Positions 5,582 through 24,000 of a DNA stretch of 24,000 bases are shown here, piece by piece. Source of the stretch: Sulfurifustis variabilis (GTDB lineage Bacteria > Pseudomonadota > Gammaproteobacteria > Acidiferrobacterales > Sulfurifustaceae); assembly GCF_002355415.1 (NCBI RefSeq), contig NZ_AP014936.1, positions 3,317,126 through 3,341,125 of the forward strand, read 5' to 3'. Under the pieces are notes generated by a model. That model searched no databases. It had not been told where the DNA came from and saw only the letters and a program-made list of their open reading frames with translations. How positions within the stretch are numbered: the stretch's first letter is position 1; each line of letters opens with the position of its first letter. A program made the translations under genes and the position numbers.

Positions 5582-6304
5582 TCACGTGAGACGCAGTAGC
5601 TCCTTGCCCGCATGGAACACCCGCAGCTCGCCGGGTTTGAAAGATTCCCACGGCCCCTTGTCCAGCAACTCGGTGACGACCACCGTCCGGCTCGACCCGT
5701 CGACGCCTTCCGAGCGCACGTGCAAACGGTCGTGCCCGTACTCGATCAGCAGCGCGCCGTCGGAGAGGAGGAAGTTGAATCGCCCGTGGCTCGCGATGAG
5801 CCCGCTCAGCGCGGCGACCTCTCGCAACCACGCCTCACGCTGCGCGTCGCCCTCGTGGAAAATGAGGACGAGCTGCTCGAGCAGAAAGCAGAAGGCGCGC
5901 TCGGAATCGGTATCCCCGTCGAGCGCCGAGACGCGGGGGTGGCAGCAGCCGTCCGGTTGCAGCAGCGTCGTCACCTTGCCGTTGTGGGCGAACATCCAGG
6001 AGCGGCCGCAGCAGTCGCGCACGAACGGATGCGTATTCGCGAGCGTACGGGTCGTCCGTGGGTTGGCCTTGCGCACATGAGCGAGGACGAGGCCGGACCG
6101 CACGCTCTCCGCGAGCCTGCCGAAGCGTGCGCTTCGCGCGGCCGGTTCGGGCGCCTTCTCGACGACGAGACGTCCTGCATCCAGGAAACCAATGCCCCAG
6201 CCGTCGGGATTATCTGCGGTCCCCCCGCCGTGCCGCCCGAACTCGAGAAGCAGCTTCCCGACCCGCGCCGGCGTCGCGCTGCTGATGCCGAGTAGCTCAC
6301 ACAT
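5582..6304 (-). CDS. class II (Ntn-type) glutamine amidotransferase, YafJ-like
   Basis: 240 aa starting MCELLGIS, with the nucleophile Cys immediately after Met. Further motifs are DNPDGWGIGF, VLAHVRKAN..TRTLANTHPF and WMFAHNGKV. Confidence 0.85.
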   Translation of the reverse strand: MCELLGISSATPARVGKLLLEFGRHGGGTADNPDGWGIGFLDAGRLVVEKAPEPAARSARFGRLAESVRSGLVLAHVRKANPRTTRTLANTHPFVRDCCGRSWMFAHNGKVTTLLQPDGCCHPRVSALDGDTDSERAFCFLLEQLVLIFHEGDAQREAWLREVAALSGLIASHGRFNFLLSDGALLIEYGHDRLHVRSEGVDGSSRTVVVTELLDKGPWESFKPGELRVFHAGKELLRLT

Positions 6305-6390
6305 CTTTCGTGTCTTGACCCACCTGGGGATGCGCCCTCTGGTTCACGTCGTGCACCAAGCCGATGCAAGTACCGGCCTTGCCACGCCAG

Positions 6391-6813
6391 TCACGCCACG
6401 TCGATCTCCAGCGCCGCCGTCTCGATCAGCCGGCACCAGCCCTCGTTCTTGCCATGCTGCTCCGGCAGGCTTTCCCAGATTGCGAGCGCCCGTTCCATCC
6501 GTTGCTGAAGCGTGAGGAGCTCCGCGATCTTGGCGCGGTTGTCCTCGATGCGCGCCTTGAGGATCGCGCGCACCTGGTGACACGGGGACTTCCCCTCGCT
6601 GCTGAGCTTCAGGAACCCACGGATTTCCTCGAGCGTATAACCCAGCCGTTGCGCCTGGCGGATGAACCGCAGTCGCCCCACGTCACGCAACGAAAAGAGC
6701 TTGTAACCGTTGTCCGGGTGGCGTGCCGGCTCGAGCAGTTGGATGCGGGCGTAGTAGCGGATGACGTGCGGCGAGACGCTGCCGCGCTTGGAAAGCTGGC
6801 TCACGGTGAGCAT
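6391..6813 (-). CDS. MerR-family transcriptional regulator (paralog 2)
   Basis: ORF 6391..6903. The start is chosen at ATG 6813 (GGAGG 10 nt upstream): MLTVSQLSKRGSVSPHVIRYYARIQLLEPARHPDNGYKLFSLRDVGRLRFIRQAQRLGYTLEEIRGFL. It has Cys in SPCHQV and a second Cys in GWCRLIE. Confidence 0.9.
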   Translation of the reverse strand: MLTVSQLSKRGSVSPHVIRYYARIQLLEPARHPDNGYKLFSLRDVGRLRFIRQAQRLGYTLEEIRGFLKLSSEGKSPCHQVRAILKARIEDNRAKIAELLTLQQRMERALAIWESLPEQHGKNEGWCRLIETAALEIDVA

Positions 6814-6922
6814 TCTTATGTACCTCCGTGCTGACTGCCTGAACCGACCCCGCAGCGGCGGGGACCGCGAGTAAACGTAGGGATGCGCGCGCTCGCCGCG
6901 CACGAAATCCCGGGACAGTCAG

Positions 6923-7330
6923 CTAGTTCAGGAGGTGCCCGAAACGCAGGTAGAGGGGTGAACGCGGCGGGAACGGCGGTGCGCTCGACCACGAGAGCGG
7001 GGAGACGAGCGGCATGGCGAGAAGGCCGACGAAGAACGCGAGCAGGAGCGCCGCCTGGAAAATGGGAGAGGAGCCCGTGGGGAGCGCCTGCGACTCGTGG
7101 TCGAGCGCCGTGGCGCAGAGCGCATGGCCGCTCGCCTGCGCGTGGTCATGGCTGTCGCCCGCCGCCCCGCCGTCCGCATGCTCAGCCGCGCCCGAAAAGA
7201 TGCTCGTCACCCCCTCGCAGCACGGCGAAAGCGCGCCCGCGACGGCCAGGACGAGCCAAGCAACGAGCAGCCTCGCCGCGAGCGACCACGGCCCGCGGCG
7301 CAGTCTCTTGTGCAAGCGTTGGATGGACAT
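6923..7330 (-). CDS. hypothetical two-TM membrane protein with a His/Cys-rich loop
   Basis: 135 aa. TM1 is WSLAARLLVAWLVLAVAGAL, the loop is SPCCEG...AEHADGGAAGDSHDHAQASGHALC and TM2 is IFQAALLLAFFVGLLAMPLV. The RBS is weak and no family was recognised with confidence. The layout is reminiscent of CopL-like small metal-cluster proteins. Confidence 0.45.
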   Translation of the reverse strand: MSIQRLHKRLRRGPWSLAARLLVAWLVLAVAGALSPCCEGVTSIFSGAAEHADGGAAGDSHDHAQASGHALCATALDHESQALPTGSSPIFQAALLLAFFVGLLAMPLVSPLSWSSAPPFPPRSPLYLRFGHLLN

Positions 7331-7635
7331 CTTCGCTACAGTCAGGCTGCTCCCGCCATAAGTAGGTGTCAGGTTACGAGGCGACCCGAGGTCGAACCTT
7401 GATCGCGGTCAAAAAAATCTGAATCCCCGGCCCGTTCCTGATGCTCCAGATCCTGGGAACGAAAACGACGGGAAAACCTAGAAAGCAATGGCTCAATATA
7501 GGTTCCAGGCACAGCTGCACAGCGACCTCAGCTCGCCCTAGGGGTCTCCCGCGCTCGACGCACCGATCGCATCCAGCTAGGCTCTCGGTTCAGCTTCGTT
7601 GGCCCAGCGTAGGTGACTGACAGTCTGGCCAGCGG

Positions 7636-7935
7636 ATGGCTCCGATGGCGACGGAGACGACCGCGGAAGGAGGGGATGTGACAGCGACGACCGAAAACGA
7701 CCTGCGGGACATGACGAACCGGGCTATGGAGGAAGCGCTCGCGAAGCTACGGCGCCTCCTCGATGCCGCAGCTGCGAGCGCCAGCGAGACCGGGTCGCCC
7801 GTCGTACTCGATGACCATCTTCAAGGCGAACTCGAGTACGTGGTCAAACAGGCCGTCGCAATCGGGGTAAGCTTGGCGACGGAAGCCCGGGCGGTAAGCG
7901 TGGCTCCAACCAAGCTGACTGGACTGCCGCACTGA
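7636..7935 (+). CDS. hypothetical protein
   Basis: 99-aa ORF with plausible acidic/helical composition and GC-rich third positions. No recognisable motif. Confidence 0.3.
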   Translation: MAPMATETTAEGGDVTATTENDLRDMTNRAMEEALAKLRRLLDAAAASASETGSPVVLDDHLQGELEYVVKQAVAIGVSLATEARAVSVAPTKLTGLPH

Positions 7936-8089
7936 GGTGCGCACGCGCCCCTCGACTCGATCCCGCCAGCGACGTTTCGCCACTCCCGACACTCGGGGGC
8001 CCCACGGTCCCCTCCTAGCCGCGCCTTTGATTGCCGTGAGGTGACACTTATAATTCCCACGGCCTCGTCATGGAATCCTGGGTGCGGAT

Positions 8090-8245
8090 TTGAAGTTCCG
8101 CGTCGTCGTACACGCGGCGGAGGTCGGGGGCTACTGGGCGGAGATCCCGGCGTTTCCCGGCTTGGTCGCCGTCGGCGCCAGCTTGGACGAGATCAAGGAG
8201 AACGCGCGCCAAGCAGTGGTGAGCCAGGTGCTCAGGAGTGAATGA
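8090..8245 (+). CDS. HicB-like (UPF0150) antitoxin-fold mini-protein, TTG start
   Basis: Read by hand in a frame the ORF track does not list (51 codons): (TTG)KFRVVVHAAEVGGYWAEIPAFPGLVAVGASLDEIKENARQAVVSQVLRSE-TGA. This matches the HicB N-terminal pattern MKF.V.i....gGY.aevPelPGc.tqG.tldE..eN.keAi. There is no in-frame ATG and the protein is shorter than usual. Confidence 0.5.
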   Translation: MKFRVVVHAAEVGGYWAEIPAFPGLVAVGASLDEIKENARQAVVSQVLRSE

Positions 8246-8736: not shown

Positions 8737-11517
8737 TTACGTCCTCTGTGAACCTCGCTTCCCGGTCACCGCCCCGCCTCTTTCCCGCATCCAGCCCGTG
8801 AGCTCCTCGAGAGCCAGGGGCCTGCCGAAATAGTAGCCCTGTGCCGCGTCACAGCGGAGCGCCTGGAGCTTTTTCCATATGTTTTCGTTCTCGACGCCCT
8901 CGGCCACGACCTTGAGCCCGAGTGCATGGGCCAGCGAGATGATCGAGCGCACGATCGTCGCCGAGTCCTTGCTCATGAGCATGTCCAGAACGAAGGACTT
9001 GTCGATCTTGATGGCGTCCACGGGCAACTTCTTCAGGTAACCGAGCGAGGAGTACCCGGTCCCGAAATCGTCGATGTAGAGCGGAATGCCGAGCTTGTGG
9101 AGTCGCGTGACGAGGGCCAGAGCGCGCGCCGGATCGGCCATGATCATGCTCTCCGTGATTTCGAGCTCGAGCAGCCCCTTCTTGATGCCCCACTTCGCGC
9201 ACAACGCCTTGATCTTGTCCGGAAGCGTTGCATCGAGCAGGTTGCGCGCCGACAGGTTGACGGCCACGGGCAGGCGCATCCCGTCTTCCTGCCAGGCGTG
9301 GACCTGGCGTATGGCGGTCTCGAGCACCCACTCGGTCAACGGCGCGATCAGGCCGGTCTGCTCCGCGAGAGTAATGAATTCATCGGGCCGGATCATGCCC
9401 TGCTGTGGGTGGCGCCAGCGAGTCAGCGCCTCGACGCCGCAGGGCTTGGCCGTTCGGACGTCGACCTTCGGCTGATAGTAGAGCAGCAGGTTTCCGCGCT
9501 CGATCGCTTCGCGCAGATCGGCCGCAAGGGCCAGACGCCGGGCCGTGTTCTGGTCATGGGCCGGATCGTACAGCGCCCAGGCCGCGCCGGACTGCTTGGC
9601 GTGCTGCAACGCCATGTCCGCTGAGCGGACGAGCGCGTCCACCTCGCGGCCGTCCTCCGGATAGAGCGCTACCCCGATGCTGGTATCCAAGTCCAGCGAG
9701 AGCGACCCGATCGTGAAACGCTCATCGAGCGCCTCGCGAATGCGCGCCACAACTTGCTCGGCACACGCCACGCGGTCGCACGGCACGAACACGGCGAATT
9801 CGTCTCCGCGCATCCGGGCGATGAACTCGCTTGGCTTCAACACGGCGCACAGTCTTCCGGCGACGGCCTTCAGGAGCAGGTTCGCCTGCTGCATCCCCAG
9901 CGCTTCGTTGATTTCGCGGAACCGTGTGATGTCGATGAGGAGCAGCGCCGTCGGTGCGTCTTGATTGCTCACCTTTTCTCGAAAGTACTGCTGAAGCTGG
10001 GCGTGATTGGGAAGCTCGCTCAGCGTATCGAAGTAGGCCAGCCGCTCGATTATCGAGGTCGCCTGCTCGTGTCGTGCGCGGGTGCGCAGCGCGGCGATAC
10101 CGTACGAAAGGTCCTCCGCCATCTCTTCGAGCAGCCCCATCTCGTTCTCGTCGAACGCGTCCGGTTCCGCGGCGTAGATGGCGAGCGCGCCCATGGGCCG
10201 GCGGTCGACGATAAGTGGAAGCGCCGCGACGGCGGCGTAGCCGCGCGCAGCCGCCTCCTCTCGCCAAGGAGCGAAGTTCGGGTCCGTCAGGATTTCGCGC
10301 ATGACGGCGGGACGCCCGGTGCGAATCGCTCGACCGACCGGCCCACGGCCGCGCTCGGTGTCATCCCAGCGCACGTCCAGCCGATTCAGGGGCGAGAGGA
10401 TTCCCTCCTCGAGTCCCTCCTGGGCCATCGCACGCACCGTCTTCGTGTCGTCCTCTTGTGCGAACCCGACCCAGGCCATGCGGTAGCCGCCAACTCGCAC
10501 GACTGCCCGGCACATCGCCGCGAGCAGTTCCTGCTCGTCGTGGGCCCGGACGAGGGAGCGGTTGCCAGCACTCAACGTGCGCAGCGCCCGGTTGGAGCGC
10601 TCGAGTCCTTCGGCCATGGCGTCGAAAGCGCCCGCCAGGCGGGCGAGCTCGTCGCCTTCGTGCGGCAGGCCGGTGCGCGCGCCGAGCTCGCCGCGGCCGA
10701 GGCGACCGGCCGCATTCACGAGGGCGTTCACGCGCCGCAGGACAAACAGGCTCGTCCCGACCCAGGCCGCCACCAGTGCGAGCGCTGCAAGGCCGAGCAG
10801 CGCGAGATTGCCGGTGAGCACCTTCTCCACTCGAGCGTAAACGAATTCCGTGGGAATGCCCGCGATGACGTGCACGGTGCCGTCGGCGTGACCGTGCAGG
10901 CGGCCATGGGCCGTGAGCCGGGAGACTCCGTCGGGGCCCGTAAACACACCGGCGCCTTCGCGCTCGGCGAACAGGGCGTCCCGGAGAGCGGGGTCGATGA
11001 GTTCGTTTCCTACTCGATCGCCCGCGGACTTAGGCTGGTAGGCGAGCACCGTCCCCCGATGATCCACGACGGCGAGTGTGGAGCCCGGTGGGAGGTCGAT
11101 GCGTGCGAGCAGCTGGTCGAACCACGAGAGATCGAGGGCCGCATAAACGACCGCCTTGGCGGTGTCACTGGCGTCCCGTACGGGGTAGCCCATGTTGATG
11201 GCGCTCTTGCCGGTCAGCCTTCCGACTTGATACTCGCCGATGCTGAAGTCGTTGGTCTCGAGCGCCTGCCTGAAATAGCGCCGGTCGGCGATGCTCACCC
11301 CCTGCTTCAAGGGTGCGGCGCTGCAGTAGATGTGACCCTCGGCATCGGCCACCCCGATATTGGTGTAGTAAGGATGAAGCCTGAGGGTGTTTGCGAGGAA
11401 CCGCCGGCATCGTTCCGTCCGTGCGCGGTCGGGGACCGTCGGATGGCCGGCGAGGCCGGCAAGCAGCTGGCGCGACTGCGCGACGAGGAATTCCTGCTCC
11501 CGGATCACGAGATGCAC
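8737..11517 (-). CDS. membrane sensor: Cache-like periplasmic domain, HAMP, GAF, degenerate GGDEF (RGDEF) and EAL c-di-GMP phosphodiesterase. The contiguous ORF is given; the true 5' end is probably at 11666 across a frameshift
   Basis: 926-aa ORF starting at a GTG. TM2 is NLALLGLAALALVAAWVGTSLFVL. HAMP reads RRVNALVNAAGRLGRGELG...FDAMAEGL. GAF reads YRMAWVGFAQ...GRAIRTGRPAV...ALPLIVDRRPMGALAIYA. The GGDEF domain has ARMRGDEFAVF. The EAL domain has QPKV, VEALTRW, NLSA, ELEITE, DDFGTGYSSL, KIDKSF, EGVE and QGYYFGRP. Confidence 0.9.
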   Translation of the reverse strand: MHLVIREQEFLVAQSRQLLAGLAGHPTVPDRARTERCRRFLANTLRLHPYYTNIGVADAEGHIYCSAAPLKQGVSIADRRYFRQALETNDFSIGEYQVGRLTGKSAINMGYPVRDASDTAKAVVYAALDLSWFDQLLARIDLPPGSTLAVVDHRGTVLAYQPKSAGDRVGNELIDPALRDALFAEREGAGVFTGPDGVSRLTAHGRLHGHADGTVHVIAGIPTEFVYARVEKVLTGNLALLGLAALALVAAWVGTSLFVLRRVNALVNAAGRLGRGELGARTGLPHEGDELARLAGAFDAMAEGLERSNRALRTLSAGNRSLVRAHDEQELLAAMCRAVVRVGGYRMAWVGFAQEDDTKTVRAMAQEGLEEGILSPLNRLDVRWDDTERGRGPVGRAIRTGRPAVMREILTDPNFAPWREEAAARGYAAVAALPLIVDRRPMGALAIYAAEPDAFDENEMGLLEEMAEDLSYGIAALRTRARHEQATSIIERLAYFDTLSELPNHAQLQQYFREKVSNQDAPTALLLIDITRFREINEALGMQQANLLLKAVAGRLCAVLKPSEFIARMRGDEFAVFVPCDRVACAEQVVARIREALDERFTIGSLSLDLDTSIGVALYPEDGREVDALVRSADMALQHAKQSGAAWALYDPAHDQNTARRLALAADLREAIERGNLLLYYQPKVDVRTAKPCGVEALTRWRHPQQGMIRPDEFITLAEQTGLIAPLTEWVLETAIRQVHAWQEDGMRLPVAVNLSARNLLDATLPDKIKALCAKWGIKKGLLELEITESMIMADPARALALVTRLHKLGIPLYIDDFGTGYSSLGYLKKLPVDAIKIDKSFVLDMLMSKDSATIVRSIISLAHALGLKVVAEGVENENIWKKLQALRCDAAQGYYFGRPLALEELTGWMRERGGAVTGKRGSQRT

Positions 11518-11793
11518 CAGGTTGCGCGCCTCGCGTTCCGCTTCAACGGCCGCCGCCTGCCGCTCGACGAGAGCGGTATAAAGGATGATGACGAGCGCGG
11601 GAAGCGCCCCAGCAGCACCAGCAAGAATAACCGGCCTCGCAGGCTCAAAGCCGTCGAGCCTTGCATCACAACTCCCCTTTTCTGCGTCTCGATAGGTAGT
11701 TACATAGCAAAATTAACAGTGAAGGGAAGTTCTCCCACTCATCGTGCGCTTACCGACCGAGCACCGGCTTCTGACCGGCGAGGAAGACCGGAG

Positions 11794-12114
11794 CTAAGCG
11801 TGTGATGTCCCCCGGAAAATCGAGTACAACCGATGCAGGCGCTCGATGACGGCCTCAGCGTGGCCCCCTCGTACGGAAGTTTGGTCGCCTGGCGGCTGGG
11901 ACAGGATCGCTTCGATATCCTTTATTAGGGTCTCCAGGTCCCTTCGGAGCCGGGCAGGAACCTCTATCGTGATGTCGATCGTCGCAAGGATCTTGTGAGC
12001 CGCTGCGAGACGCTCAATAGCGGGTCCCGGAGCGAGGACTGACGCCAACGCCGCTTCTCTCAACTTTCGAAGTCCCGTGGTTTCACCGACCATGTCAAAA
12101 AAGCGCAATGGCAA
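11794..12114 (-). CDS. hypothetical protein
   Basis: 106-aa ORF (TTG start; alternative ATG at 12093, MVGETTG...) in a patch of lower GC. The composition is helical and non-Arg-biased. No recognised motif. Confidence 0.35.
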   Translation of the reverse strand: MPLRFFDMVGETTGLRKLREAALASVLAPGPAIERLAAAHKILATIDITIEVPARLRRDLETLIKDIEAILSQPPGDQTSVRGGHAEAVIERLHRLYSIFRGTSHA

Positions 12115-12613
12115 TGAACCGGCGCGCTACCTCGCGTTCAGCGTTTCGACTCAAAGATGCAGCAACGGCGCGAAGACTTCATGACGGTGCGAATTCGTGC
12201 CTCGGGAACTGGTCGCATTAAGTGGCCTAGCGAACCCCAACGACTTGGAAGACCAGACGGCTCGAATCAGCATCGCTCTTCTGTCACAGCGATGCAGGAG
12301 CGGTCGCCCAACTCAGAGGCCGTTTCTATCTTGGGGTACGGTTCAGCCGATTCGCTGAGTTGCAGCAAAAACTAAGCCAGCCGTCGCAGCATTTTGGCGA
12401 AGTGTGGACTATTGGTATCGCTGTTTTCGTGGCAGGGGATATCGGGATTTGGCAGCTCCTTTGGCGCGAAAACCGCATTGCCAGAAAGTACGCCCGGGGT
12501 TAAGTACCCCCGACACCAGCCTGCCGGTTCCCGCAACAGTGCGCTTCGGCAGCCGCCCGCCATGCTCGGAAATTAGGTTGTGGGCTACGCACGCCGCATC
12601 CAGAGCCCTCTCC

Positions 12614-13726: not shown

Positions 13727-13909
13727 TCAGCGGAAGCGCCGCGCACGGCGATGGTGTTCCTGGTGATCGGCGCGGCCGCGGGCAGCGGCCGTGTTACGCG
13801 CCGGCAAGTCGGCCGACAGGCCCTGGCGAGCGCGGCCTGCCACGAAATCAGCAAGCGCGGTGGCGCTGATGTACGCCGCGTCCGGCCTGGGTGGCTGACG
13901 CGTCTTCAT
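13727..13909 (-). CDS. small hypothetical protein (60 aa), translationally coupled
   Basis: The internal ATG of ORF 13727..13975 overlaps the DUF1173 stop as ATGA, with a GGAGGG RBS inside the upstream gene. It reads MKTRQPPRPDAAYISATALADFVAGRARQG... and ends 6 nt before the nuclease ATG. Confidence 0.35.
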   Translation of the reverse strand: MKTRQPPRPDAAYISATALADFVAGRARQGLSADLPARNTAAARGRADHQEHHRRARRFR

Positions 13910-15180
13910 GTGACCCTCCCCTGCGCCGGCGGCAGCGGGGGCGGCTGCGGCGTTGCCTGCGGATCCCACCACCACAGCGCTTGCCCGAGTTGCTCGTAGC
14001 GCGCCTGCTTCTGCCGCCAGCGCTCGGCATAGACTGCGTGATTCATCATGCCGAGGACCTCGAGGTGCATGCGGTCCGCACGATCCTCCAAGATCACGTC
14101 CGGCAACAGTCTGTCACCCTGCTCCTCGATCGCGAGCGGCTTGCGGAACGTGCGCTGGGTGGCCAGGAGCGAGCGCACGAGCTGGCGTTCGTGTCCGGAA
14201 TCGACCGGGATCCAGCTCGAGCCGTCGGATAGAGGCAGCGCCGCAAAATCGCGAACGTCGAGGCGGATTTCCCGCGCCGCATCGGTTCGCTCGACGCGGG
14301 CGATAAAGGCGATCGGGTGCTCGGGGGTGAACGCGTCCTGCGGGGCCATGTCGAGCCAGACGTCGGCGTACTGCTCCCAGGCCTTGGCGGCGACGTGGAG
14401 CGGCAGCGGAAAGTGGGCGCACTTGAGGATGAAGCTCCCGTCCTGCCGCTCGACGTGTTTCACGATGCCGACGAGGTAGCCGTACCACTGGCGGCCGTTC
14501 TTTGGATTCTGCGTTAGGTTCGAGAGCCACCGGTCTCGCCCGGCACGAAGTTCCTCCTCGCGGTCCGGATGATACGGGGGCGGGACGTAGAGCAGCGGCG
14601 CCAGATCGTGGGCGCGCAGCTGCAGGGTCGCGGCCACCTCGCGCAGGCGATGACTCACGACGCCGTAGTGGCGCTTGCGCGCGAACGCCGGGCGCCAGAT
14701 GTTGAGCTCGGCCTGCGACCAGAGGACCTCGAGCAGCGAGCGCAGCCTACCGCGCGGCGCGGGAGCACGCAGCCGGCCGCTTTTCGGCTCGTCGTCCGTA
14801 TCTCCTGCGCCGGCCGCGGACGACGCCCGGTAGAGCGGTGCGGCGAGATTCAGGTTGATGCGGTCGCCGCGGATCTCGACGACCGGCGGGCCGGCGGCGT
14901 CGCCGGAAGCCTCGGCCTGCTGCTCCACCATGCGATGCGGGCAACCGAGCGCGTGTCGGGCAGGGTCGCTTCGCTGCAGCGGATAGAGGTAGTACGTGTC
15001 GTGCGGCACGCTGCGGTGCCCTACTCCCATCGGGATACCCTCGCTTCGGCATAGACAGAGCACGTCGCCGGCCTTGCCGTGGCTCGGCCCCAAGTAATGC
15101 GCGCGATGCTCGCGCGAGCGCTCGATCTCGCTCAGCGCGATGCGCCGCCTATCGGGCAGTTCGATCAGCGGGGTCGGCAT
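13906..15180 (-). CDS. DUF1173-like protein
   Basis: 424 aa. The N-terminal Cys/His cluster (DVLCLCRSEGIPMGV...HALGCPH) is the pattern I recall for DUF1173. The C-terminal LLPDVILEDRADRMHLEVLGMMNHAVYAERWRQKQARY resembles a Vsr/DUF559-style endonuclease core (PD..n..EV.G). Assignment is from memory of the family and not from a search. Confidence 0.65.
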   Translation of the reverse strand: MPTPLIELPDRRRIALSEIERSREHRAHYLGPSHGKAGDVLCLCRSEGIPMGVGHRSVPHDTYYLYPLQRSDPARHALGCPHRMVEQQAEASGDAAGPPVVEIRGDRINLNLAAPLYRASSAAGAGDTDDEPKSGRLRAPAPRGRLRSLLEVLWSQAELNIWRPAFARKRHYGVVSHRLREVAATLQLRAHDLAPLLYVPPPYHPDREEELRAGRDRWLSNLTQNPKNGRQWYGYLVGIVKHVERQDGSFILKCAHFPLPLHVAAKAWEQYADVWLDMAPQDAFTPEHPIAFIARVERTDAAREIRLDVRDFAALPLSDGSSWIPVDSGHERQLVRSLLATQRTFRKPLAIEEQGDRLLPDVILEDRADRMHLEVLGMMNHAVYAERWRQKQARYEQLGQALWWWDPQATPQPPPLPPAQGRVT

Positions 15181-15688
15181 GGCCTCGTATCCTTTCGGGA
15201 GCGCACACGCACGGTGCGGGCGTGTATCGGGCGAGCTTGTCCTTGCTGGTTATGAACCGCGCGAGTGCGGGCGCCGCAGACACGCACTCGACACGACGCT
15301 CGGCGATGGCGAGCTCCCGCGCGACGCGCGCCTGGGCGGGCAGCAACGGGCGCCAGCCTTGCTCGATCAGCACCGGCGCCGTCTCCTGTCCGAACTCGCG
15401 CAGGTAGCGCCACGGGTCGCTCAGAAAGAGCTCGAAGGAGATCTCGGCCCGAAGGCCGCAGGCCTGGTAGATGTCGGCCCAGTGGTCGATGACGGCGTCA
15501 TTCAGCATCGGCGCTACTCCGAGTGTGTGCACACCTCCAACATGCCATGCGTTTTCAAATTGCAAGGGATCACCGGTGGACCCGAGTACGGCGCGATGCG
15601 CGGCCGCGCGGACTCGGCGTCGGTGTACGACGCCGAGTCCCACCCCGTCGGACACGGACAACGCGCACTCACGCTTTGCCGCCTGCAA
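15149..15688 (-). CDS. hypothetical protein (start uncertain)
   Basis: 179-aa ORF from a TTG. A likelier ATG at 15508 gives MLNDAVIDHWADIYQACGLRAEISFELFLSDPWRYLREFGQE... The 3' end overlaps the DUF1173 start by 32 nt. No family recognised. Confidence 0.4.
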   Translation of the reverse strand: MQAAKRECALSVSDGVGLGVVHRRRVRAAAHRAVLGSTGDPLQFENAWHVGGVHTLGVAPMLNDAVIDHWADIYQACGLRAEISFELFLSDPWRYLREFGQETAPVLIEQGWRPLLPAQARVARELAIAERRVECVSAAPALARFITSKDKLARYTPAPCVCAPERIRGHADPADRTAR

Positions 15689-15779
15689 ACTTGCATTTTC
15701 TGGATCGCCCGTATGCTGAGGTCATTTCAACGGGGGACCGACCGTGCCTGAGCGTAAGCATGCCGAGGCGATGAAGCCC

Positions 15780-16889
15780 TTATCCTATTTCCTTGCTAAA
15801 GCTCTCGCCGAGATCGCCTCCCGCGACGCCCGCCGGCGCCTCAACCGGCGACGACGTAACGTCCGTCGTCTCCGCGGCTGACGGCGTGCTTCGGCTCGGT
15901 TTGCGGCTTCTCAGCAGCGGTCCGAGATAGGCGCTCGCAATCTGCGGGCGCGAATGCCCGAGATGTTCCGCGACGATCTGACGCGCCAGGCGTTCATCGG
16001 CCGGGTCAACGGAGGCCGTGTCGCCGCCGTAGACCGGCGCGTCCACGCCCAGGATGCTCTTGTAGATCGCGTTGGCCTCCTCGTGGCGAAGCCCGTGCGC
16101 CACGATCCCGGTGGTGCGCGCGATGCCGCAGTCGCGGCATACCCGGTAGTAGTGGGTCTTCCAGGCTTTCAGCGACTGCGCGTCAGGAATCAGCGACCCC
16201 GTGGAGGTGTTCGCCCAACGCTTTGCGATATCCAGAATGTGTCGCTGGGCAGGATTCTCGATCGGCACCGTCCGATCCCGACCTCCCTTGGCGCCCCAGT
16301 TGACGGCGAGATGCGTCCCCTGGTCGGCGAGCCTCGGGTGCAGCAGCCAGGCCTCCCGGGCCCGCAGGCCGAACACCCGCTGCAGCGCGAGCTGAAGGGC
16401 CACGAGCTTATCGAGCTTGGCGATCTCGGCGAGCTTTTGTTCGACATCAATACCGAGACCGCTCCAGCCCTTGGGCTTTTGCGCGACGTAGGACCGCTCG
16501 GCAGCGGCCGGATCGGCGAGGTACTGCCCCGCGCGGGCGACCATGCCGTGCTTCCCGACCCAGGTCGCGAAGACCCGAAACACCGAAAACCGCCGCTGGA
16601 TCTCGGCAGCCGAGAGTCTCTGCTCCTCCCAGTGGCGCGCCAACACCTGCATGTGGCGGTTTCCGAAACCGGCCGGGTCGCGCAGCTTGTAGCCGAGCTC
16701 GTGTAATGCGAGGAATCCCTGCCTGAGGATCTGCCCGCGGGCCGTTGCCGTGGCGTCGCTGCAGCGCTTCGCGAAGCGACCGTGGCGGTGGTTGTGCTCG
16801 CGCAAGAGTTGAGTGAGCCGATACAGCAGCTCGCTCTTCGCCGAGCGGCGGCTACCGCGGCTCGGGTTCTTCGTGTTCGTCGTTGGCAT
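15780..16889 (-). CDS. tyrosine recombinase, Integrase_1-like (second recombinase of the element)
   Basis: ORF 15780..16985. The start is chosen at ATG 16889 (GGAGGA 6 nt upstream, MPTTNTKNPSRG...). Candidate catalytic residues are GLRAREAWLL (Arg), AHGLRHEEA (H-x-x-R) and HLGHSRPQIASAYLG (His...Tyr). Confidence 0.75.
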   Translation of the reverse strand: MPTTNTKNPSRGSRRSAKSELLYRLTQLLREHNHRHGRFAKRCSDATATARGQILRQGFLALHELGYKLRDPAGFGNRHMQVLARHWEEQRLSAAEIQRRFSVFRVFATWVGKHGMVARAGQYLADPAAAERSYVAQKPKGWSGLGIDVEQKLAEIAKLDKLVALQLALQRVFGLRAREAWLLHPRLADQGTHLAVNWGAKGGRDRTVPIENPAQRHILDIAKRWANTSTGSLIPDAQSLKAWKTHYYRVCRDCGIARTTGIVAHGLRHEEANAIYKSILGVDAPVYGGDTASVDPADERLARQIVAEHLGHSRPQIASAYLGPLLRSRKPSRSTPSAAETTDVTSSPVEAPAGVAGGDLGESFSKEIG

Positions 16890-18568
16890 AGCGTCCTCCG
16901 AATCTGTGGTTGATGGGTTGAATCGTTTAAGGAGCGACAGCGCCGGCTCGTGCCCGGGCCCCGCCAGCAATGGGGCAATGGCCATTTCGTTAGAGAGTGA
17001 TGAGCAGCGAGCGCGCCCGTTTCCGGGACGCGTGCGCGGGGGCTTGCGACCTGCTGCGCAAGCGGCGGGCTCAAAGAACGATCACCGTGAGTTCATCGAC
17101 GACGAAGACACCGATGGGCTTCCTGCCGGCCAACAGCAGGCTGGGTGGCTGCGCAACTTCCCGGGGCACGTGGCGTCGCGTATGGACGCCATATTCCCCG
17201 AGCGGCCTTGCGGCCGTGTACTGGGCGCCGCTTCGTCGGATCGATTGCATGCGAAGCCGACGCAACATCGGCTTCGGCACCGTATGCCGTCGTCCTGCGA
17301 CACGGTGCTTGGACGTGATCGTTACTACGCGATCACGTTTCGGGCGGGGGGGACGACCTGTTGGGGACCTTCGCGCGGAGACGGCGCGAATCGCGCTGGC
17401 GGTGAGGCTTGCCTGGCGCAGTGCCCTGATGGCGCATGCAAACAGCGAAAGCGCCTGCGAGCTACGACACGGGGGGACTCAACACTCTCGGGTAAGCACT
17501 TGGGGCGAGCATTCGCCCTTGTGCTATCGGCGCTGCTTTTCCTGTTCGGACGCTGCAGCTCGCGCGCCTCGGTCGAGGCTTGGGGGAAAACGCGCGCATT
17601 CTGAACTGATCACACACGCGCGGTCAAGCGCGTCTTCGCGCGCTTGTCGGGTGTGGAACTATTTGTCTGCGGTCGATGCGGGTGCCGCCGGCCCTGATCG
17701 GCATCGCCAAGTGCCGATGCACAAGGACGATTCTTGGACGCGCTCGACCCCTCTGTGTTCCGGGAACCGAGGCACGTGGAGATTGATCGCGAGACACGCC
17801 GCGACCGCGGGCTCCGGCACGCTGCCCTGCGACACGGTGCGGCATCGCGGAGAGCGACCGATCGCCGTCGATCACACCGGCAACCGATTGAGCCGCGCTC
17901 CATCGCCGTCACCATCAAACACGTCGCTTGCGACGTGCATCGCCCGTCACGAGCCCGATCGCGTCGTCTGCGACGTTTCTGCGACGCGCACCGGCGATAG
18001 ATGCGTGATCTGGTGATCTATCCCCTCTTGCCTCGCGATGAGTCTTCTGGCACAAATGCCGCCACGGGATTCGAGCGAGTCGAACCCGATAGTCGTCGGC
18101 GGCATGCGGCGACTGCGTGACCCGAGACCGCATGCGACACGCTCCACCCGATCGCTGGTCTCAACGAGGTGATCGATCGTTCGGCTTCTCAGGCCAAACG
18201 ATCGAGCGGCAACGAAAGCAAGGCACCGCTAGTGCCGACGCCCCGTTGCCGTAGCTTTTGTGATAGTAGCTGGCGCAAGACCCCGCAGTTTCTGCTAGGT
18301 CAATGAGGTCGGATAGCGTGCTCTTTGGCGTTCGCTGATCCGGCTTGAAACGAGACCTGCCGCGCGGCATGCGGCAACAGTCAAGCGGGTGCGGCATCGG
18401 GCTAATCAATCAGCCCTCGCTGCCAGCCCGCTTCTCTCCATGTTCCCTGTTCGTGATTTTGCGGCGTGCTGCGTGTGCGCCGCGCGGATGACGCACGCCC
18501 GCTCGCGCCGGTTTTTCACGCGCGCCGTTCACCCTGATTTCAACCGAATTCCTTAAAGGAGCTACTGC

Positions 18569-19579
18569 ATGCACACCACCATTCGAGCAATCGATGTTGG
18601 CTACGGAAACACCAAGTACACGCTGTCCCACAGCCGCCAGGGGGAGATCCCTTGCGGCGTCTTCGCGTCCATCGTCGCCCCGGCGGTGGCGGGCGATCTC
18701 TCGGACGGGGCGCTCGCGCGGCGCAACACCGCCGTCGTCCACGTGAACGGCTGCGACTACGAGGTCGGCCCGGATGCCGAGCTCGTGACTGGCGCGCACG
18801 CCGCGCGCGTGCTCCACGGCGAGTTCCTCGGCACGCGCGAGTATCTCGCGCTGCTGCGCGGGGCGCTCTGCTACATGGAGGTCGCGAGCATCGATCTCCT
18901 CGTGGTCGGCCTCCCGGTGTCCTACCTCGCGGACAAGGCGGCGGCGCTGCGCGCCCTGGCCGAAGGGACGCACGTGCTGTCGGTGAAGCATTCCGTGCAC
19001 GTGGCCAAGGCGCTCGTGCTCGCCCAGCCGCTCGGCGGCCTCGCCTACCACGCCATGACCCGCGGCCTCTACGGCCGGTTCCTCCAGACCCGCAACCTCA
19101 TCGTCGATCCCGGCTACTACACCGTCGACTGGCTGACCACGAAGGGCCTGCAGCCGCTGCCCAAGCGCTGCGGGAGCTTCGCCGGGGGTGTGCACGCGGT
19201 CGCTCGGGCCGTTGCGCGCGCGGTAGCGAGCGAGGAGCGGATTTCCCCTGATGAGCTGCCGGCGCTCGATGCCGCCGTGCGCGACGGCTACCTCACGCTC
19301 TTCGGCCGGCGTACGCCTCTGCAACCGCGGCATCTCGAGGCGGCCCGCGGCGTCACCGAGGAGGCGGCGCACGCGATTGCGAACTCGGTCGGGGCCGGAC
19401 GCGACATCGAGGCGATCCTGCTCGTCGGCGGCGGTGCGGATCTCTACCGCGAGGCGCTCGCCCGGCGGTATCCGAAGCACGCGGTCCAGATCGTACCGGA
19501 GCCGGTGCTCGCGAATGTCCGCGGCTTCCAGCTCATCGGCGAGGAGGTCGCGCGCCGGCGCCAAGCGGCCACGGCATGA
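18569..19579 (+). CDS. ParM/StbA-family actin-like segregation ATPase
   Basis: 336 aa with an AAGGAG RBS. Actin-fold motifs appear in order: IRAIDVGYGNTKY (phosphate 1), LLVVGLPVSY, VLAQPLGG, NLIVDPGYYTVDW (phosphate 2), ILLVGGGADLY (adenosine) and a C-terminal VRGFQLIG. Confidence 0.85.
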   Translation: MHTTIRAIDVGYGNTKYTLSHSRQGEIPCGVFASIVAPAVAGDLSDGALARRNTAVVHVNGCDYEVGPDAELVTGAHAARVLHGEFLGTREYLALLRGALCYMEVASIDLLVVGLPVSYLADKAAALRALAEGTHVLSVKHSVHVAKALVLAQPLGGLAYHAMTRGLYGRFLQTRNLIVDPGYYTVDWLTTKGLQPLPKRCGSFAGGVHAVARAVARAVASEERISPDELPALDAAVRDGYLTLFGRRTPLQPRHLEAARGVTEEAAHAIANSVGAGRDIEAILLVGGGADLYREALARRYPKHAVQIVPEPVLANVRGFQLIGEEVARRRQAATA

Positions 19580-19861: not shown

Positions 19862-20275
19862 ATGCTCAAACACGCCAATCCTGACCCGAACCAGGTCGCC
19901 ACGTCCCTGGGGAAGTCCACGCCGCGCTCGTCCGAGAAAGACGGGAGAAGCGAGACGCTGCTGACACTGGAACAGGCAGCCCGGTTCCTCCGGATGAACC
20001 CGGAATCCCTGCGCCGCAAAGCAAAGGCCGGAGAGGTTCCGGGCGCCAAGATCGGACGATCCTGGCTCTTCTACGAACCTGACCTTGTCGCCAACTTGAG
20101 GTCCTTGTACCCTGCTTCTCGGGCGTTGCAGGGCAAGGAGGAAAATCCATGCTCTGCAAATTCAAGGGCAGTCCGCATTGGTACGTTCGCTTCACGGCGC
20201 CAAATGGACGCCGCATATGCCGAACTACTCGGACTGCCGATCGAAAGCTCGCCCAAGAGTACGAAATCCAGTTGA
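19862..20275 (+). CDS. excisionase-family HTH DNA-binding protein (Xis/AlpA-like)
   Basis: 137-aa ORF. The HTH_17-type core is LLTLEQAARFLRMNPESLRRKAKAGEVPGAKIGRSWLFYEPDLVANL. The RBS at 19862 is poor, so the start is uncertain. The tail overlaps the integrase gene by 127 nt. Confidence 0.6.
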   Translation: MLKHANPDPNQVATSLGKSTPRSSEKDGRSETLLTLEQAARFLRMNPESLRRKAKAGEVPGAKIGRSWLFYEPDLVANLRSLYPASRALQGKEENPCSANSRAVRIGTFASRRQMDAAYAELLGLPIESSPKSTKSS

Positions 20276-21216
20276 AGCAGGAGGTATGGCGGGCCTGCCA
20301 GCTCGGTGAGGAATCGCCGAAACGCTGGGAGGAGGCCGTCATGCCCTGGTCGCAGGCCAAGAAGTCCAAGCCGTCGTGGCGAGACCTGCGTCGGAACCTG
20401 CGGATACTGAATCCGTACCTCGGGGGCAAGCTGTTGAGAGACATCACCGCGGAGGACATAGATAGGATCAAGGCAGACCGAGAGTCAGCGGGGGTAGCGC
20501 CAGCAACAACCAATCGGACGCTCGAAGTGTTGCGTTCGGTATTGCGGATGGCACTCAAGCGTAATTGGCTCAAAGCGCTCCCCCCGATCGAATTCCTCGA
20601 CGAACCCGACGTTCGCATTCGTTGGATCACGCCGGAAGAAGCCGACCGGTTGATTCAGGAACTGGCGAAGTCGAAGCGGACCGCAGCGCTTGCGGAATTG
20701 GTCCGGTTCAGCCTCGCGACGGGACTGCGCGAATCGAACGTCACCGGCCTTGAGTGGTCTAGGGTCGATCTGGAGCGGCGGGTAATGTGGGTGGAAGGCT
20801 ATCAATCGAAGAACGGTTCGGCCTTCAATCTGCCGCTTTCCGCCGAGGCGATCCTGGTGCTACGTCGGCAGCAAGGGAAGCATTCGCGGTGGGTGTTTAC
20901 GTATTACGGAAAGCGAGTAAAACGGGGCAACACGAAGGCGTTCAAAGCGGCTCTGAAGCGCGCAGGGATTTCCAACTTCCGTTGGCACGACCTGCGTCAC
21001 ACCTGGGCCTCTTGGCACGTTCAAAATGGAACGCCGATCCCCGTGCTGCAGCAACTCGGTGGATGGAAGACGCTCGCGATGGTCATGCGGTACGCCCATC
21101 TCGGCGCCAGCCACCTCGCCGAGTTTGCCGACAACGTCCCGAGGCTTCGGGTCGTTGCTGGCAAAAAATTGGCAAAGTCAGAATGCGACTCTACCGAAGA
21201 TGCTGTAAGTGCTTGA
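20149..21216 (+). CDS. tyrosine-type site-specific integrase
   Basis: 355 aa with AAGGAGGA 7 nt upstream. The N-terminal arm-binding pattern is KGSPHWYVRFTAPNGRRICRTTRTADRKLAQEYE. Catalytic residues are TGLRESNVTGLEW (Arg), WHDLRHTWASW (H-x-x-R) and GGWKTLAMVMRYAHL (Tyr). The stop lies 4 nt from a tRNA-Lys 3' fragment. Confidence 0.9.
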   Translation: MLCKFKGSPHWYVRFTAPNGRRICRTTRTADRKLAQEYEIQLKQEVWRACQLGEESPKRWEEAVMPWSQAKKSKPSWRDLRRNLRILNPYLGGKLLRDITAEDIDRIKADRESAGVAPATTNRTLEVLRSVLRMALKRNWLKALPPIEFLDEPDVRIRWITPEEADRLIQELAKSKRTAALAELVRFSLATGLRESNVTGLEWSRVDLERRVMWVEGYQSKNGSAFNLPLSAEAILVLRRQQGKHSRWVFTYYGKRVKRGNTKAFKAALKRAGISNFRWHDLRHTWASWHVQNGTPIPVLQQLGGWKTLAMVMRYAHLGASHLAEFADNVPRLRVVAGKKLAKSECDSTEDAVSA

Positions 21217-21220
21217 TAAC

Positions 21221-21266
21221 TGGTGGGCCGTGCAGGAGTCGAACCTGCGACCAACTGGTTAAAAGG
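21221..21266 (-). other. 3' 46 nt of tRNA-Lys(UUU), from anticodon loop to CCA; att-site core, not an intact tRNA
   Basis: Minus strand: CTTTTAA-CCAGT-TGGTC-GCAGG-TTCGACT-CCTGC-ACGGCCC-A-CCA. This gives the anticodon loop (UUU), 3' anticodon stem, variable loop, complete T arm, 3' acceptor strand, discriminator and CCA. The 5' anticodon-stem partner (ACTGG expected, CACGC found), the D arm and the 5' acceptor strand (GGGCCGT) are absent. Confidence 0.8.
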
Positions 21267-21573
21267 CGTGAGCTGTTTTTGTGGGCGTAGTCAATTCAAC
21301 CACTTACGGAGCGCCCGTTGCACACAAAAGCAGCAAAACGTCCATTTGGGCCCACTGAAGTGTCACAAAAGTGCCACACGAAAATTTTTTTCGAGCGTCA
21401 CTTACGCAAGGATTCGCTCGCACGGCGAAATGATACGCTGCGCGACGCAAGGTGGTCACCCAACATGCTCTCCAGATCCTGGATCTGTCATGCGCGTTCT
21501 CGGTGCCCTTCCTCCTCTTTTCGGCGCCGCGCCTCTTTCTCCAATCTCTCCTTTTCGATTTCACGCGACCGAG

Positions 21574-22992
21574 TTACATGAAGAACCGAAACTGATACGG
21601 CGCGCTCCCCAAACCGTGCATGCGCTTAACCACTCGCGCGAGTACCTTCGCGTACCCAATGGTTACGGGTAGCGGGTCATACAAAGCATCGTTGTTCCAG
21701 TCCATTTTCGAAAGCGCGAGTATGGCGCGCGCGGTCTCGTCCCAAGGCCCGTGGCCGGCGTGCCGTACCAAGCGCACCGGTACGGGTGTACCTCGAGCAC
21801 CCTGAAAGTATTGCCGATCGCTAATGCCACGTACGTCACCATGGGTCCACAGCAACGCTTCTCGCGGACCGAGACCCATCAGCGTACCGCGCGAAACCGG
21901 AAAGGCTGCGGGCTTTCCCTTCTTCGCGCCATCATCACCGTCGATCCGAATTCCGCGCCAACCAACGTCTTCAACGATCTGCAAGAGATCGACTGCCTCG
22001 CACAGATGAAGGGCTTCCATGCAACCATCGATCTCGTCCGGCTTAAATTCGGTTGTCTTATGGACCATCACACGGCGCGGCGAGCGACCAGCATGACGGC
22101 GACGGTATAGTTCCAACGAACGTGTCATCACGCGGAACATCTCGGTACGTGAGAGGAATGGATTGTCGCGTTGGACCTCCACTTCGTGGGCATCATAGGC
22201 AACAAACTCCAAGCCCGAGCCTTCAGCGTCAAAAACCTGGCTGCAGCAGGTAACAAAGCGAGGCCGGTCCGATTCGACCGGGCGCACGGCGTAGGAAATT
22301 CCGATGTAAGCAGTTTCAGGGTCCATCTCAGCCAGCTTCCAGGGCACACCACCGGCCTTGGCATAAAGCGCTAACCCAATGCGCCACATCACACTAGCTC
22401 GATCTGGATAGGCGAGCGCCTTGTCCTCGCGTACCAACTGGACAGGGAGTCGACGGGTGGCTGTTGCGGCTTTTAGGTGATCATGCAGATCAAAATCTTC
22501 GCCTGACGCCCCGACGTAGCCAGCTGCCCAGCGTTGAGGGATGTAAATAAACAGCACATCAAAATCATTGCGTTGGGTGTCGAGGCGCTGAATGGCGCGC
22601 ACCAGCCGCTCGGCCAACACAATGTGCGGTGTTGATGAATCGCAGAATTCAGCCTCAAGTTCTTTGTCGAGCTCAACGTGGCAGCTACCACCGGCGGCTT
22701 TCATATGAAGACCGAAAACGCGCTGAAAACCGGGCCACTCCGGCAGATAGTCTCTGCGCTCGCTGGGTTTGGCTGGCGCGTTGAGCTGCTTCAAGAAATC
22801 GTAAAGGCGGTGGCTCTCACCCTCAGGTGCCAACGTGGCGACGCGGATAGGATCCGGCACCAAGCCGCTGGAGTGCGGACCGAATCGCAGCAGGCCCCGC
22901 AGCGGGTGAATGTCCTGGTCAGATGCGCGATCAGGATGGAAGGCCAGTTTTGGTTCAGGCAACCAAACATGAGGAAAAATCTCGCTGCTCAT
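21574..22992 (-). CDS. short prokaryotic Argonaute (MID-PIWI only, catalytically inactive)
   Basis: 472 aa with a GGAGGG RBS. MID 5'-end pocket candidates are H-x3-K (DLHDHLK), Q (PVQLV) and K (LYAKAGGVPWKL), with spacing close to the canonical Y/H-K-Q-K. The PIWI motif is AYIGISYAV, where active Agos have G-x-D-V, so the first catalytic Asp is replaced by Ser. The C-terminus is YQFRFFM. The size fits short pAgos, which lack N and PAZ domains. Confidence 0.9.
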   Translation of the reverse strand: MSSEIFPHVWLPEPKLAFHPDRASDQDIHPLRGLLRFGPHSSGLVPDPIRVATLAPEGESHRLYDFLKQLNAPAKPSERRDYLPEWPGFQRVFGLHMKAAGGSCHVELDKELEAEFCDSSTPHIVLAERLVRAIQRLDTQRNDFDVLFIYIPQRWAAGYVGASGEDFDLHDHLKAATATRRLPVQLVREDKALAYPDRASVMWRIGLALYAKAGGVPWKLAEMDPETAYIGISYAVRPVESDRPRFVTCCSQVFDAEGSGLEFVAYDAHEVEVQRDNPFLSRTEMFRVMTRSLELYRRRHAGRSPRRVMVHKTTEFKPDEIDGCMEALHLCEAVDLLQIVEDVGWRGIRIDGDDGAKKGKPAAFPVSRGTLMGLGPREALLWTHGDVRGISDRQYFQGARGTPVPVRLVRHAGHGPWDETARAILALSKMDWNNDALYDPLPVTIGYAKVLARVVKRMHGLGSAPYQFRFFM

Positions 22993-24000
22993 GCCCCAGC
23001 CCTCCTCGAAAAGGCGGTAATCCCAGAGATAGAAAAAACGGCATCGACACCATCACCGATTTCCAGCGCGCGCAGATCGCTGCCGGCAAGTAGTTCAGCC
23101 CAAAAATCGACGAAATCGTTGAGTTGCCGGTTATAGCGCTTAACCGTCCTTTCACGAGAAAAATCTGCGGCAGCCGCCTTATTGGCATCGGTGATGCCAT
23201 CGAAGACTGTCCGCGGTTCGATCAACAACCACAGGCGGTCATCGGCCCAGTCGAGCCGAATTCCAACACCTTCACGCCAACGTAATCCGGAACCACCTGC
23301 GACCGCACCACTGAGCGAGCCGGCCAGACGTTTCAGTGGCGCCCATGTGCTGTCCGCTGGATCAGTTGGTGCTAGCAGATCCGTGCTTCGCCGGCGAACG
23401 ACGTCAAGACACCGATGGCGCTGGATCGCCCGAGTCAGTGCATCGCGCAAGAGACCGCGTTCGCCAGAATCATAGCGAAGCCGTTTTGTCTCGATGGTAT
23501 GCAAGTCAAATTCCGTGATGCCGTATGGCTCGAAAGCCTTACGCACATCAGCGTCCCTACCATATGCCAATACTCCGGCCCGAGTGCGAGCAATCAATAC
23601 GTCCACACCGGCCTTTTGAGCTGCATCGCGCGCTTCACCAAAGCCGCCGATCTGGCACACTACACGCCGGCACACGTTGGGCGTACGGACTACCGGTAAC
23701 GCATTGAGGCGCACTACTGGCCAACCACGACTTCCGTTTGGACGCGGAGCGTCGCTCCAGCGCCGACGCTCCGTAGCGAAAGCATCAAGCACGGTCGTGT
23801 CGATACCCTTCACCAGACGGATGAGATCTCGCATTACCTCGTCGAAGTTTTCCACACGCACTAGCCCAGCTTCCACTCCCGCCGCCTTGGCGCTCAACAG
23901 TAACTGCTGAACGCGGGGGAGCGGCGGTTCTTCGCCTCGATGCAGCCAAAAGAGCCCCAACTGGAACGCGTCGCTGTGCTTTAGTGCCTCCTCGAGCGCG
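22989..24000 (-). CDS. APAZ-domain partner of the short pAgo; the N-terminal effector domain (probably SIR2) is outside the window
   Basis: The reading frame is open from the window edge: ...ALEEALKHSDAFQLGLFWLHRGEEPP.... The ORF-track 'M' at 23960 is an internal TTG. The stop overlaps the pAgo ATG as ATGA. About 337 aa are visible. The first 60 or so (FWLHRGEEPP..LLLSAKAAGVEAGLVRVENFDEVMRDLIRL) resemble the tail of SIR2_2-type domains. The remainder has the size and position of APAZ. Confidence 0.8.
   Translation of the reverse strand, partial: ALEEALKHSDAFQLGLFWLHRGEEPPLPRVQQLLLSAKAAGVEAGLVRVENFDEVMRDLIRLVKGIDTTVLDAFATERRRWSDAPRPNGSRGWPVVRLNALPVVRTPNVCRRVVCQIGGFGEARDAAQKAGVDVLIARTRAGVLAYGRDADVRKAFEPYGITEFDLHTIETKRLRYDSGERGLLRDALTRAIQRHRCLDVVRRRSTDLLAPTDPADSTWAPLKRLAGSLSGAVAGGSGLRWREGVGIRLDWADDRLWLLIEPRTVFDGITDANKAAAADFSRERTVKRYNRQLNDFVDFWAELLAGSDLRALEIGDGVDAVFSISGITAFSRRAGA

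Follow-up and report, generated by a model that had tools for sequence, protein, structure and literature searches.

The right edge of a 24,000-nucleotide stretch of the Sulfurifustis variabilis genome (contig NZ_AP014936.1, positions 3,317,126 to 3,341,125; this whole stretch is called the window) carries a two-gene operon that continues past the edge. In both family and mechanism, the locus is very probably a two-gene SPARSA defense system of clade S1B (probability about 0.9, judged by sequence homology). The operon comprises a complete gene for a short prokaryotic Argonaute (pAgo) and, upstream of it, the 3' part of a gene encoding a SIR2-APAZ protein. A preliminary description of this DNA proposed a short pAgo and APAZ-effector operon of the SPARSA/SPARTA class with its effector end off-window, and the present analysis narrows that proposal to SPARSA S1B. 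The SIR2-APAZ and pAgo proteins are separate polypeptides, which defines clade S1B, and are not fused as in clade S1A (PMC9097488). The locus thus adds one member to a family with a solved mechanism and structure, and in that respect it changes little.

The gene structure, the family membership, the conserved binding and catalytic residues and the conserved pairing of the two genes are direct observations. The pAgo matches the PADLOC profile pAgo_I (PDLC02377) with an E-value of 7.4e-199, with residues 2-472 aligned to profile positions 2-457 of 457. The closest solved structure is GsAgo (PDB 8in8_C), the Argonaute of the GsSir2/Ago system of Geobacter sulfurreducens, which is matched with an E-value of 1.5e-114 (residues 3-472 versus 6-473). 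The visible 336 amino acids of the partner match the PADLOC profile Aga_SIR2-PNTD1-PNTD2 (PDLC02401) with an E-value of 6.5e-98, covering profile positions 194-523 of 524. The features of the operon are as follows.

21574..22992, minus strand: short pAgo gene, complete; an ATG-initiated open reading frame of 472 amino acids plus stop
22324..22992, minus strand: MID domain of the pAgo, about residues 1-223, placed by HMMER alignment from the GsAgo MID limits 1-218 (PMC10781750)
22357..22485, minus strand: HK-type 5'-phosphate pocket of H170, K174, Q185 and K212, aligned to GsAgo H166, K170, Q181 and K207
21574..22323, minus strand: PIWI domain of the pAgo, about residues 224-472, without slicer residues, placed by alignment to GsAgo
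22150..22194, minus strand: PIWI sensor loop, residues 267-281, DAHEVEVQRDNPFLS, aligned to the GsAgo sensor loop D261-S276
22989..22992, minus strand: ATGA overlap between the SIR2-APAZ stop codon (TGA, 22989-22991) and the pAgo start codon (ATG, 22990-22992)
22989..24000, minus strand: SIR2-APAZ gene, 3' part, 336 codons plus stop, with the frame open to the window edge
23778..24000, minus strand: C-terminal tail of the SIR2 domain, visible residues 1-74, from the GsSir2 Sir2 limits 1-309
23712..23777, minus strand: SIR2-APAZ linker, visible residues ~75-96 (about 22 amino acids), from the GsSir2 linker
22989..23711, minus strand: APAZ domain, visible residues ~97-336 (about 240 amino acids), from the GsSir2 APAZ domain

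The Argonaute and the visible part of its partner

The pAgo consists of MID and PIWI domains only and has no N or PAZ domain; GsAgo itself has 473 residues. The 472-residue MID-PIWI Argonaute of the preliminary description is therefore an intact reading frame whose identity is borne out by the PADLOC and GsAgo matches. The pAgo and GsAgo are about 42% identical in a MAFFT alignment. Nine further solved short-pAgo chains also match, with E-values of 1e-19 to 1e-30, mostly over the C-terminal two thirds only. Judged from homology at 1e-114 to 1e-199, the gene calls are well beyond chance.

General domain libraries are weak tests for the short-pAgo family, and the PADLOC profiles and sequences from PDB are decisive. 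The Pfam family Piwi (PF02171) scores below threshold on the pAgo (19.2 bits versus a cut-off of 28.9), for the part of SIR2-APAZ in view Pfam gives no meaningful match, and neither protein is matched by NCBIfam. The preliminary description would have given up the Argonaute if a significant Piwi or MID match were missing. That yardstick is too strict for short pAgos, and it is the PADLOC and PDB matches that identify the protein. An exact-sequence look-up of the pAgo, aimed at extending the contig, returned no record.

Relatives were found by a scan of one genome per species, which gave 330 for the pAgo; the best 80 of these are 68-99% identical. Residue counts refer to 79 relatives for the pAgo and to 65 full-length relatives for SIR2-APAZ. 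The four residues of the 5'-phosphate pocket are invariant (79/79), so the intact H-K-Q-K pocket noted earlier stands. Alignment to GsAgo indicates that N433 and the C-terminal M472, both metal ligands, are retained, as are D168, which contacts guide nucleotide A1, and H105, a residue of the pAgo-pAgo interface.

The PIWI domain carries the motif YIGISYAV at residues 229-236. The first catalytic Asp was said to be lost in this motif, and S233 indeed occupies the first position of the slicer tetrad. Positions 3 and 4 are K312 and K449, and the corresponding residues of GsAgo at positions 1, 3 and 4 are S228, K307 and Q450. These three positions were assigned by the GxDV, RDG and YAH motifs of active Argonautes; the second (Glu) position falls within the sensor loop and is placed only at the level of that loop. 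The tetrad S and K are invariant across the 79 relatives. With the slicer tetrad lost, the pAgo is predicted to be unable to cleave targets. The sensor loop, whose role in the PIWI domain of GsAgo has been described (PMC11452484), has a tip of N277-P-F279 that corresponds to N272-P-Y274 of GsAgo, and N277 and P278 are invariant in the 79 relatives.

The two genes share a 4-nucleotide ATGA overlap, as originally reported, and the minus-strand junction reads GAGGAGGGCTGGGGCATGAGC. A GAGGAGG Shine-Dalgarno sequence is located at 23001-23007, 8 nucleotides upstream of the pAgo ATG. The overlap is common to 55/65 related loci, and a SIR2-APAZ gene lies directly upstream of the pAgo gene in 79 of 80 loci, the exception being cut by a contig end. 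A scan for terminators and promoters in 21000-24000 found nothing above shuffled expectation.

The SIR2-APAZ gene extends about 230 codons, or about 40% of its length, beyond the window edge. The visible part comprises 336 full codons plus stop, which corrects an earlier count of 337 amino acids. In GsSir2, the Sir2 domain spans residues 1-309, the linker about 310-331 and APAZ 331-587 (PMC10781750). With these limits, the earlier reading of the whole visible piece as an APAZ domain holds for about 240 amino acids, and the remainder is a SIR2 tail of about 74 and a linker of about 22. GsSir2 (8in8_B) matches the visible partner with an E-value of 3.5e-23 over its residues 238-550, which includes most of APAZ. 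This match and that to the PADLOC profile both begin inside the SIR2 domain, in agreement with the earlier impression that the visible N-terminal piece is SIR2-like. The partner could also have belonged to a family other than APAZ, and it is the SIR2-APAZ profile that it matches.

The effector domain and a near-identical contig

The best relative of the operon is found on a Solibacteraceae contig, CAYWQS010000058.1 (L001), from a metagenome-assembled genome (MAG). L001 has 98.2% nucleotide identity to window positions 21212-24000, and the compared stretch stops where the contig ends. Its partner protein is complete, with 566 amino acids, and 329/336 of the window-visible residues are identical to its residues 231-566. 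The window edge is thus equivalent to partner residue 231. Pfam identifies SIR2_2 in the L001 partner (E-value 1.2e-11; 45.3 bits versus a cut-off of 24.5) at residues 130-261, so that about 31 residues of the L001-defined SIR2_2 span fall inside the window. The same protein scores 632 bits on PADLOC SIR2-APAZ profiles and matches GsSir2 with an E-value of 2.7e-71 over residues 10-537. With L001 as proxy, the full-length upstream gene does have the enzymatic N-terminal domain on which the preliminary description had made the operon depend.

Residues N135, H181-G-D and D225 of the L001 partner correspond to N142, H186 and D230 of GsSir2, and the GYSGRD motif is retained. N142A and H186A abolish the NADase activity of GsSir2 (PMC10781750), and D230A was the inactive control in published phage assays. 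The catalytic N, H and D are conserved in 64-65 of the 65 full-length relatives. Because the visible part matches the PADLOC SIR2-APAZ profile and GsSir2, and because a 98%-identical full-length homologue contains SIR2_2, the effector is assigned as SIR2; its integrity in the present genome is extrapolated from L001.

A different effector class, either a TIR domain, as in SPARTA, or a DUF4365/DREN nuclease, as in SPARDA, would be compatible with the fact that only the C-terminal part of the effector is visible and has no significant Pfam match. However, this part aligns from position 194 of the SIR2-APAZ profile and from residue 238 of GsSir2, the 98%-identical homologue has SIR2_2 and no TIR or nuclease family, and the pAgo matches GsAgo at 1e-114, whereas other solved short-pAgo chains reach only 1e-19 to 1e-30. 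Another effector class is hardly credible on this evidence.

SPARTA was rejected as a candidate because Pfam and PADLOC matched no TIR family in either the visible part or the full-length L001 partner, and found SIR2 instead. SPARDA and other S2B systems were rejected in the same searches, which gave no match to a DUF4365/DREN nuclease or to DHS-like families. On plasmids, where a DUF4365 gene is annotated under a pAgo match, the identity of the pAgo is only about 26%.

Predicted mechanism and points that weigh against it

Every biochemical step proposed here is carried over by homology from GsSir2/Ago of Geobacter sulfurreducens (PMC10781750, PMC10474274, PMC11452484, bioRxiv 10.1101/2021.12.14.472599). 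GsSir2/Ago is a heterodimer with a preference for RNA guides and DNA targets; it depletes NAD+ and confers protection against both phages and plasmids. Its structures show that a metal assists binding of the 5' phosphate, that the PIWI domain has a sensor loop, and that target single-stranded DNA activates the complex. Activation needs tetramerization, which aligns H186.

By analogy, the pAgo gene would be translationally coupled to the upstream SIR2-APAZ gene, and the two products would assemble as a heterodimer. The MID pocket of the pAgo would grip the 5' phosphate of a small guide RNA, and APAZ would substitute for the absent N and PAZ lobe. When the guide pairs with complementary single-stranded DNA of an invader, the PIWI sensor loop would register the duplex and the complexes would oligomerize, so that the SIR2 domain is turned on and hydrolyzes NAD+. 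The loss of NAD+ would then halt or kill the cell before the plasmid or phage spreads, as in abortive infection. Because the window system retains the parts needed for each step, the GsSPARSA scheme appears to be the best explanation.

The comparison with GsSir2/Ago (S1B; PDB 8IN8, 8JKZ, 8JL0, 8K87, 8K88, 8Y7Z-8Y82) extends over both proteins. The layout is the same, with SIR2-APAZ followed by a MID-PIWI pAgo of about 472 amino acids, and both proteins align end to end. The HK pocket, metal ligands and sensor-loop tip are shared, the slicer tetrad is likewise lost in GsAgo, and the SIR2 N, HGD and GYSGRD elements, as seen in L001, are shared as well. The partner differs slightly in length, at 566 amino acids in L001 versus 587 in GsSir2.

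Two other S1B systems, CcSir2/Ago of Caballeronia cordobensis and XavSIR2-APAZ of Xanthomonas vesicatoria, have the same operon of SIR2-APAZ and short pAgo, and NAD depletion or interference has been reported from in vivo tests of them. Neither genome is among the 80 closest loci (68-99% identity), so these systems are probably more distant relatives. The S1A fusions of SPARSA-A, such as JomSPARSA and PgSir2-Ago, have the same three modules in one chain, whereas two polypeptides with an ATGA overlap are found here. Both window proteins score on the fusion profiles PDLC02420 and PDLC02384, but at a much lower 376 and 338 bits versus 659 bits; the best PADLOC profile for the pAgo is the stand-alone pAgo_I. 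SPARTA (S2A; for example PDB 8FEX, 8IFK, 8I87) follows the same logic, in which an APAZ-fused NADase and a short pAgo deplete NAD+ when triggered by guide RNA and target DNA. However, its effector is TIR and that of the window system is SIR2, and SPARTA pAgos match only with E-values of 1e-20 to 1e-23, over the C-terminal two thirds.

Several observations weigh against the assignment to a functional system of the GsSir2/Ago type. The first ~230 codons of SIR2-APAZ are outside the window, and they include the equivalents of all the NADase residues (N135, H181 and D225), which are known only from L001. The L001 pAgo gene (L001 10001-11419, 98-99% identical) has a stop at codon 86, where the window encodes W. 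GsAgo, the sole solved relative, is only about 42% identical. Among the residues that read a 5'-AU in GsAgo, R190, which reads guide U2, is replaced by Y195 in 79/79 relatives, N195 by S200 in 79/79, and N184 by R188 in 75/79. Contacts to guide 2'-OH groups are also replaced: Y240 by F246 (79/79), H310 by E315 (78/79) and K396 by Q397 (72/79). The residues H158, Y168 and N244 of the Sir2 tetramer interface are A, D and S, respectively, with R in L001 at the position of N244.

The first two of these points bear on whether the operon is intact. A decaying or inactive remnant of the same family, with SIR2-APAZ truncated or frameshifted just past the window edge and no immunity conferred, would fit the 5' ~40% of the gene that is out of view and the nonsense codon at the position of W86 in a 98%-identical copy. 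It would also fit the ratio of nonsynonymous to synonymous codon changes between the window and L001, which is 4/8 in the pAgo and 7/9 in SIR2-APAZ. The premature stop implies that copies of this gene pair can be inactive. However, the L001 stop could represent either an inactivated copy or an error of MAG assembly. In the window itself, both visible frames are intact, all checked functional residues are retained, and there is no damage to the start codon, the Shine-Dalgarno sequence or the coupling overlap. A remnant is therefore improbable, and the two-gene SPARSA operon is the preferred reading.

The substituted residues bear on mechanistic detail. Because residues with assigned roles in GsSPARSA are not conserved, the guide preference and the mode of oligomerization may differ. 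The locus might then represent a SPARSA-like subfamily that departs from GsSir2/Ago in guide 5' preference, in guide type, or in activation by something other than a GsSir2-type tetramer. The fixed substitutions at guide contacts and the altered Sir2 interface favor this idea, which is unlikely but not negligible. On the other side, interface and base-contact residues drift freely among homologues with no change in mechanism, and the 5'-phosphate pocket, D168, the sensor-loop tip, H105 and the SIR2 catalytic residues are all retained. These retained residues favor SPARSA of the GsSir2/Ago type.

For the subfamily as a whole, which is large (330 loci in many phyla), it is conceivable, though rather doubtful, that guides are selected differently or that the NADase is activated through a different oligomer. 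A different choice of guide could mean that there is no 5'-AU bias, or that DNA guides are tolerated. A changed guide preference would matter where short pAgo systems are employed to detect nucleic acids.

Mobility of the operon and surroundings in the window

A 686-kb metagenome contig (L082) carries the same pair of genes at 9275-12432, with 87% nucleotide identity to the window only over 21568-23999. The similarity stops 6 nucleotides past the pAgo stop codon. Identity between L082 and L001 is confined to L001 8267-11425, and the flanks are unrelated. Because the likeness is limited to the two genes and their flanks are unrelated, the two genes appear to travel as a cassette of about 3.16 kb. 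The SPARSA cassette is thus compact (3.2 kb) and moves between unrelated contexts and phyla.

Relatives of the pAgo are found in Acidobacteriota, Pseudomonadota, Planctomycetota, Actinomycetota, Chloroflexota and other phyla, and the subfamily is common in soil and sediment genomes. Conjugative plasmids carry relatives as well, with no annotation beyond 'hypothetical protein' and 'SIR2 family protein'. For example, the conjugative Sagittula sp. P11 plasmid NZ_CP021915.1 contains a 74%-identical pAgo with a SIR2 partner at 4397-7425. The plasmid annotation calls this pAgo just a hypothetical protein and places the start of its gene about 150 nucleotides too late. The neighbors on this plasmid are Fic, DUF6602 and HEPN genes and IS66 elements. 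In viral contigs, only relatives of about 40% identity were found, with no sign of a phage-borne subfamily.

The operon is bordered on the left by the following features.

19862-20275, plus strand: xis-like HTH_17 gene (Pfam HTH_17, E-value 1.1e-09), which overlaps the start of the integrase gene
20149-21216, plus strand: tyrosine integrase (Pfam Phage_integrase, E-value 5.1e-34), which ends 2 nucleotides before the tRNA fragment
21218..21265, minus strand: 3' portion of a tRNA-Lys(UUU), from anticodon loop to CCA, 48 nucleotides, att-type, identified by BLAST with 91.7% identity to annotated E. coli tRNA-Lys genes

The tRNA-Lys att fragment named in the preliminary description is therefore present beside the operon, though only as part of a tRNA: neither ARAGORN nor Rfam detects one there, and the 5' half does not continue. 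The fragment is present in L001 as well. The window was searched for a second att copy with a 32-mer at up to 3 mismatches, with k-mers as short as 10 and with a repeat finder, and nothing of at least 11 nucleotides was found. No second copy and no complete tRNA-Lys turned up in the window or in 10 kb of L001.

The integrase is 42-44% identical to integrases of Burkholderia phages. The tRNA fragment is placed between it and the operon, in an orientation that puts the displaced 3' end on the left border of the operon. This arrangement could reflect either two islands inserted in tandem at a single tRNA-Lys gene, SPARSA being in the one closer to that gene, or an attP-like junction of one element. 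When plasmids were searched with the left flank, nothing matched beyond the tRNA fragment and a short stretch of PRTRC-D.

The operon was also said to lie in DNA of lower GC content that begins right after the tRNA-Lys fragment. The GC content on the operon side is indeed lower, at 0.57-0.59 versus 0.65-0.72 to the left. However, the drop, from 0.72 to 0.60, begins with the xis-like and integrase genes (about 19.7-20.0 kb), some 1.3 kb to the left of the fragment. With an integrase and the tRNA-Lys fragment adjoining, the view that the operon is island cargo on horizontally moving DNA is supported in substance.

In L001, the region directly upstream of SIR2-APAZ (207-8184) includes a gene for an 1842-amino acid DruE helicase (PADLOC DruE4, 1757 bits), preceded by open reading frames of 334 and 499 amino acids. 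By its PADLOC match, this DruE together with its neighbors is assigned as a Druantia system. A defense island with Druantia, as in L001, may also lie beyond the right edge of the window. The SPARSA operon occupies a tRNA-Lys integration hotspot and probably has a Druantia system as its neighbor.

Other features of the window include the following.

4793-5416, minus strand: LTXXQ/Metal_resist (Spy/CpxP-like) protein
5582-6304, minus strand: class-II glutamine amidotransferase (GATase_4) protein
13906-15180, minus strand: DUF1173 gene
15780-16985, minus strand: Integrase_1 gene
18569-19579, plus strand: ParM-like actin, matching 'PRTRC system protein D' of Ralstonia plasmids

The region at 13906-19579 (65-72% GC) resembles part of a PRTRC-type integrative or plasmid-like element. 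On the minus strand at 8737-11517 is a gene for a 926-amino acid signaling protein with dCache, HAMP, GAF, GGDEF and EAL domains, which are associated with cyclic-di-GMP turnover. The GC content dips to 0.58-0.62 at 11.0-13.0 kb, after this gene. Two adjoining direct-repeat pairs of 68 and 75 nucleotides, 72-73% identical and both spaced 4221 nucleotides apart, are located at 2389-2557 and 6610-6778, and probably mark two paralogous genes. Short repeats of the CATCATCTGCAT type are found at 1586-1838 and near 5166-5330.

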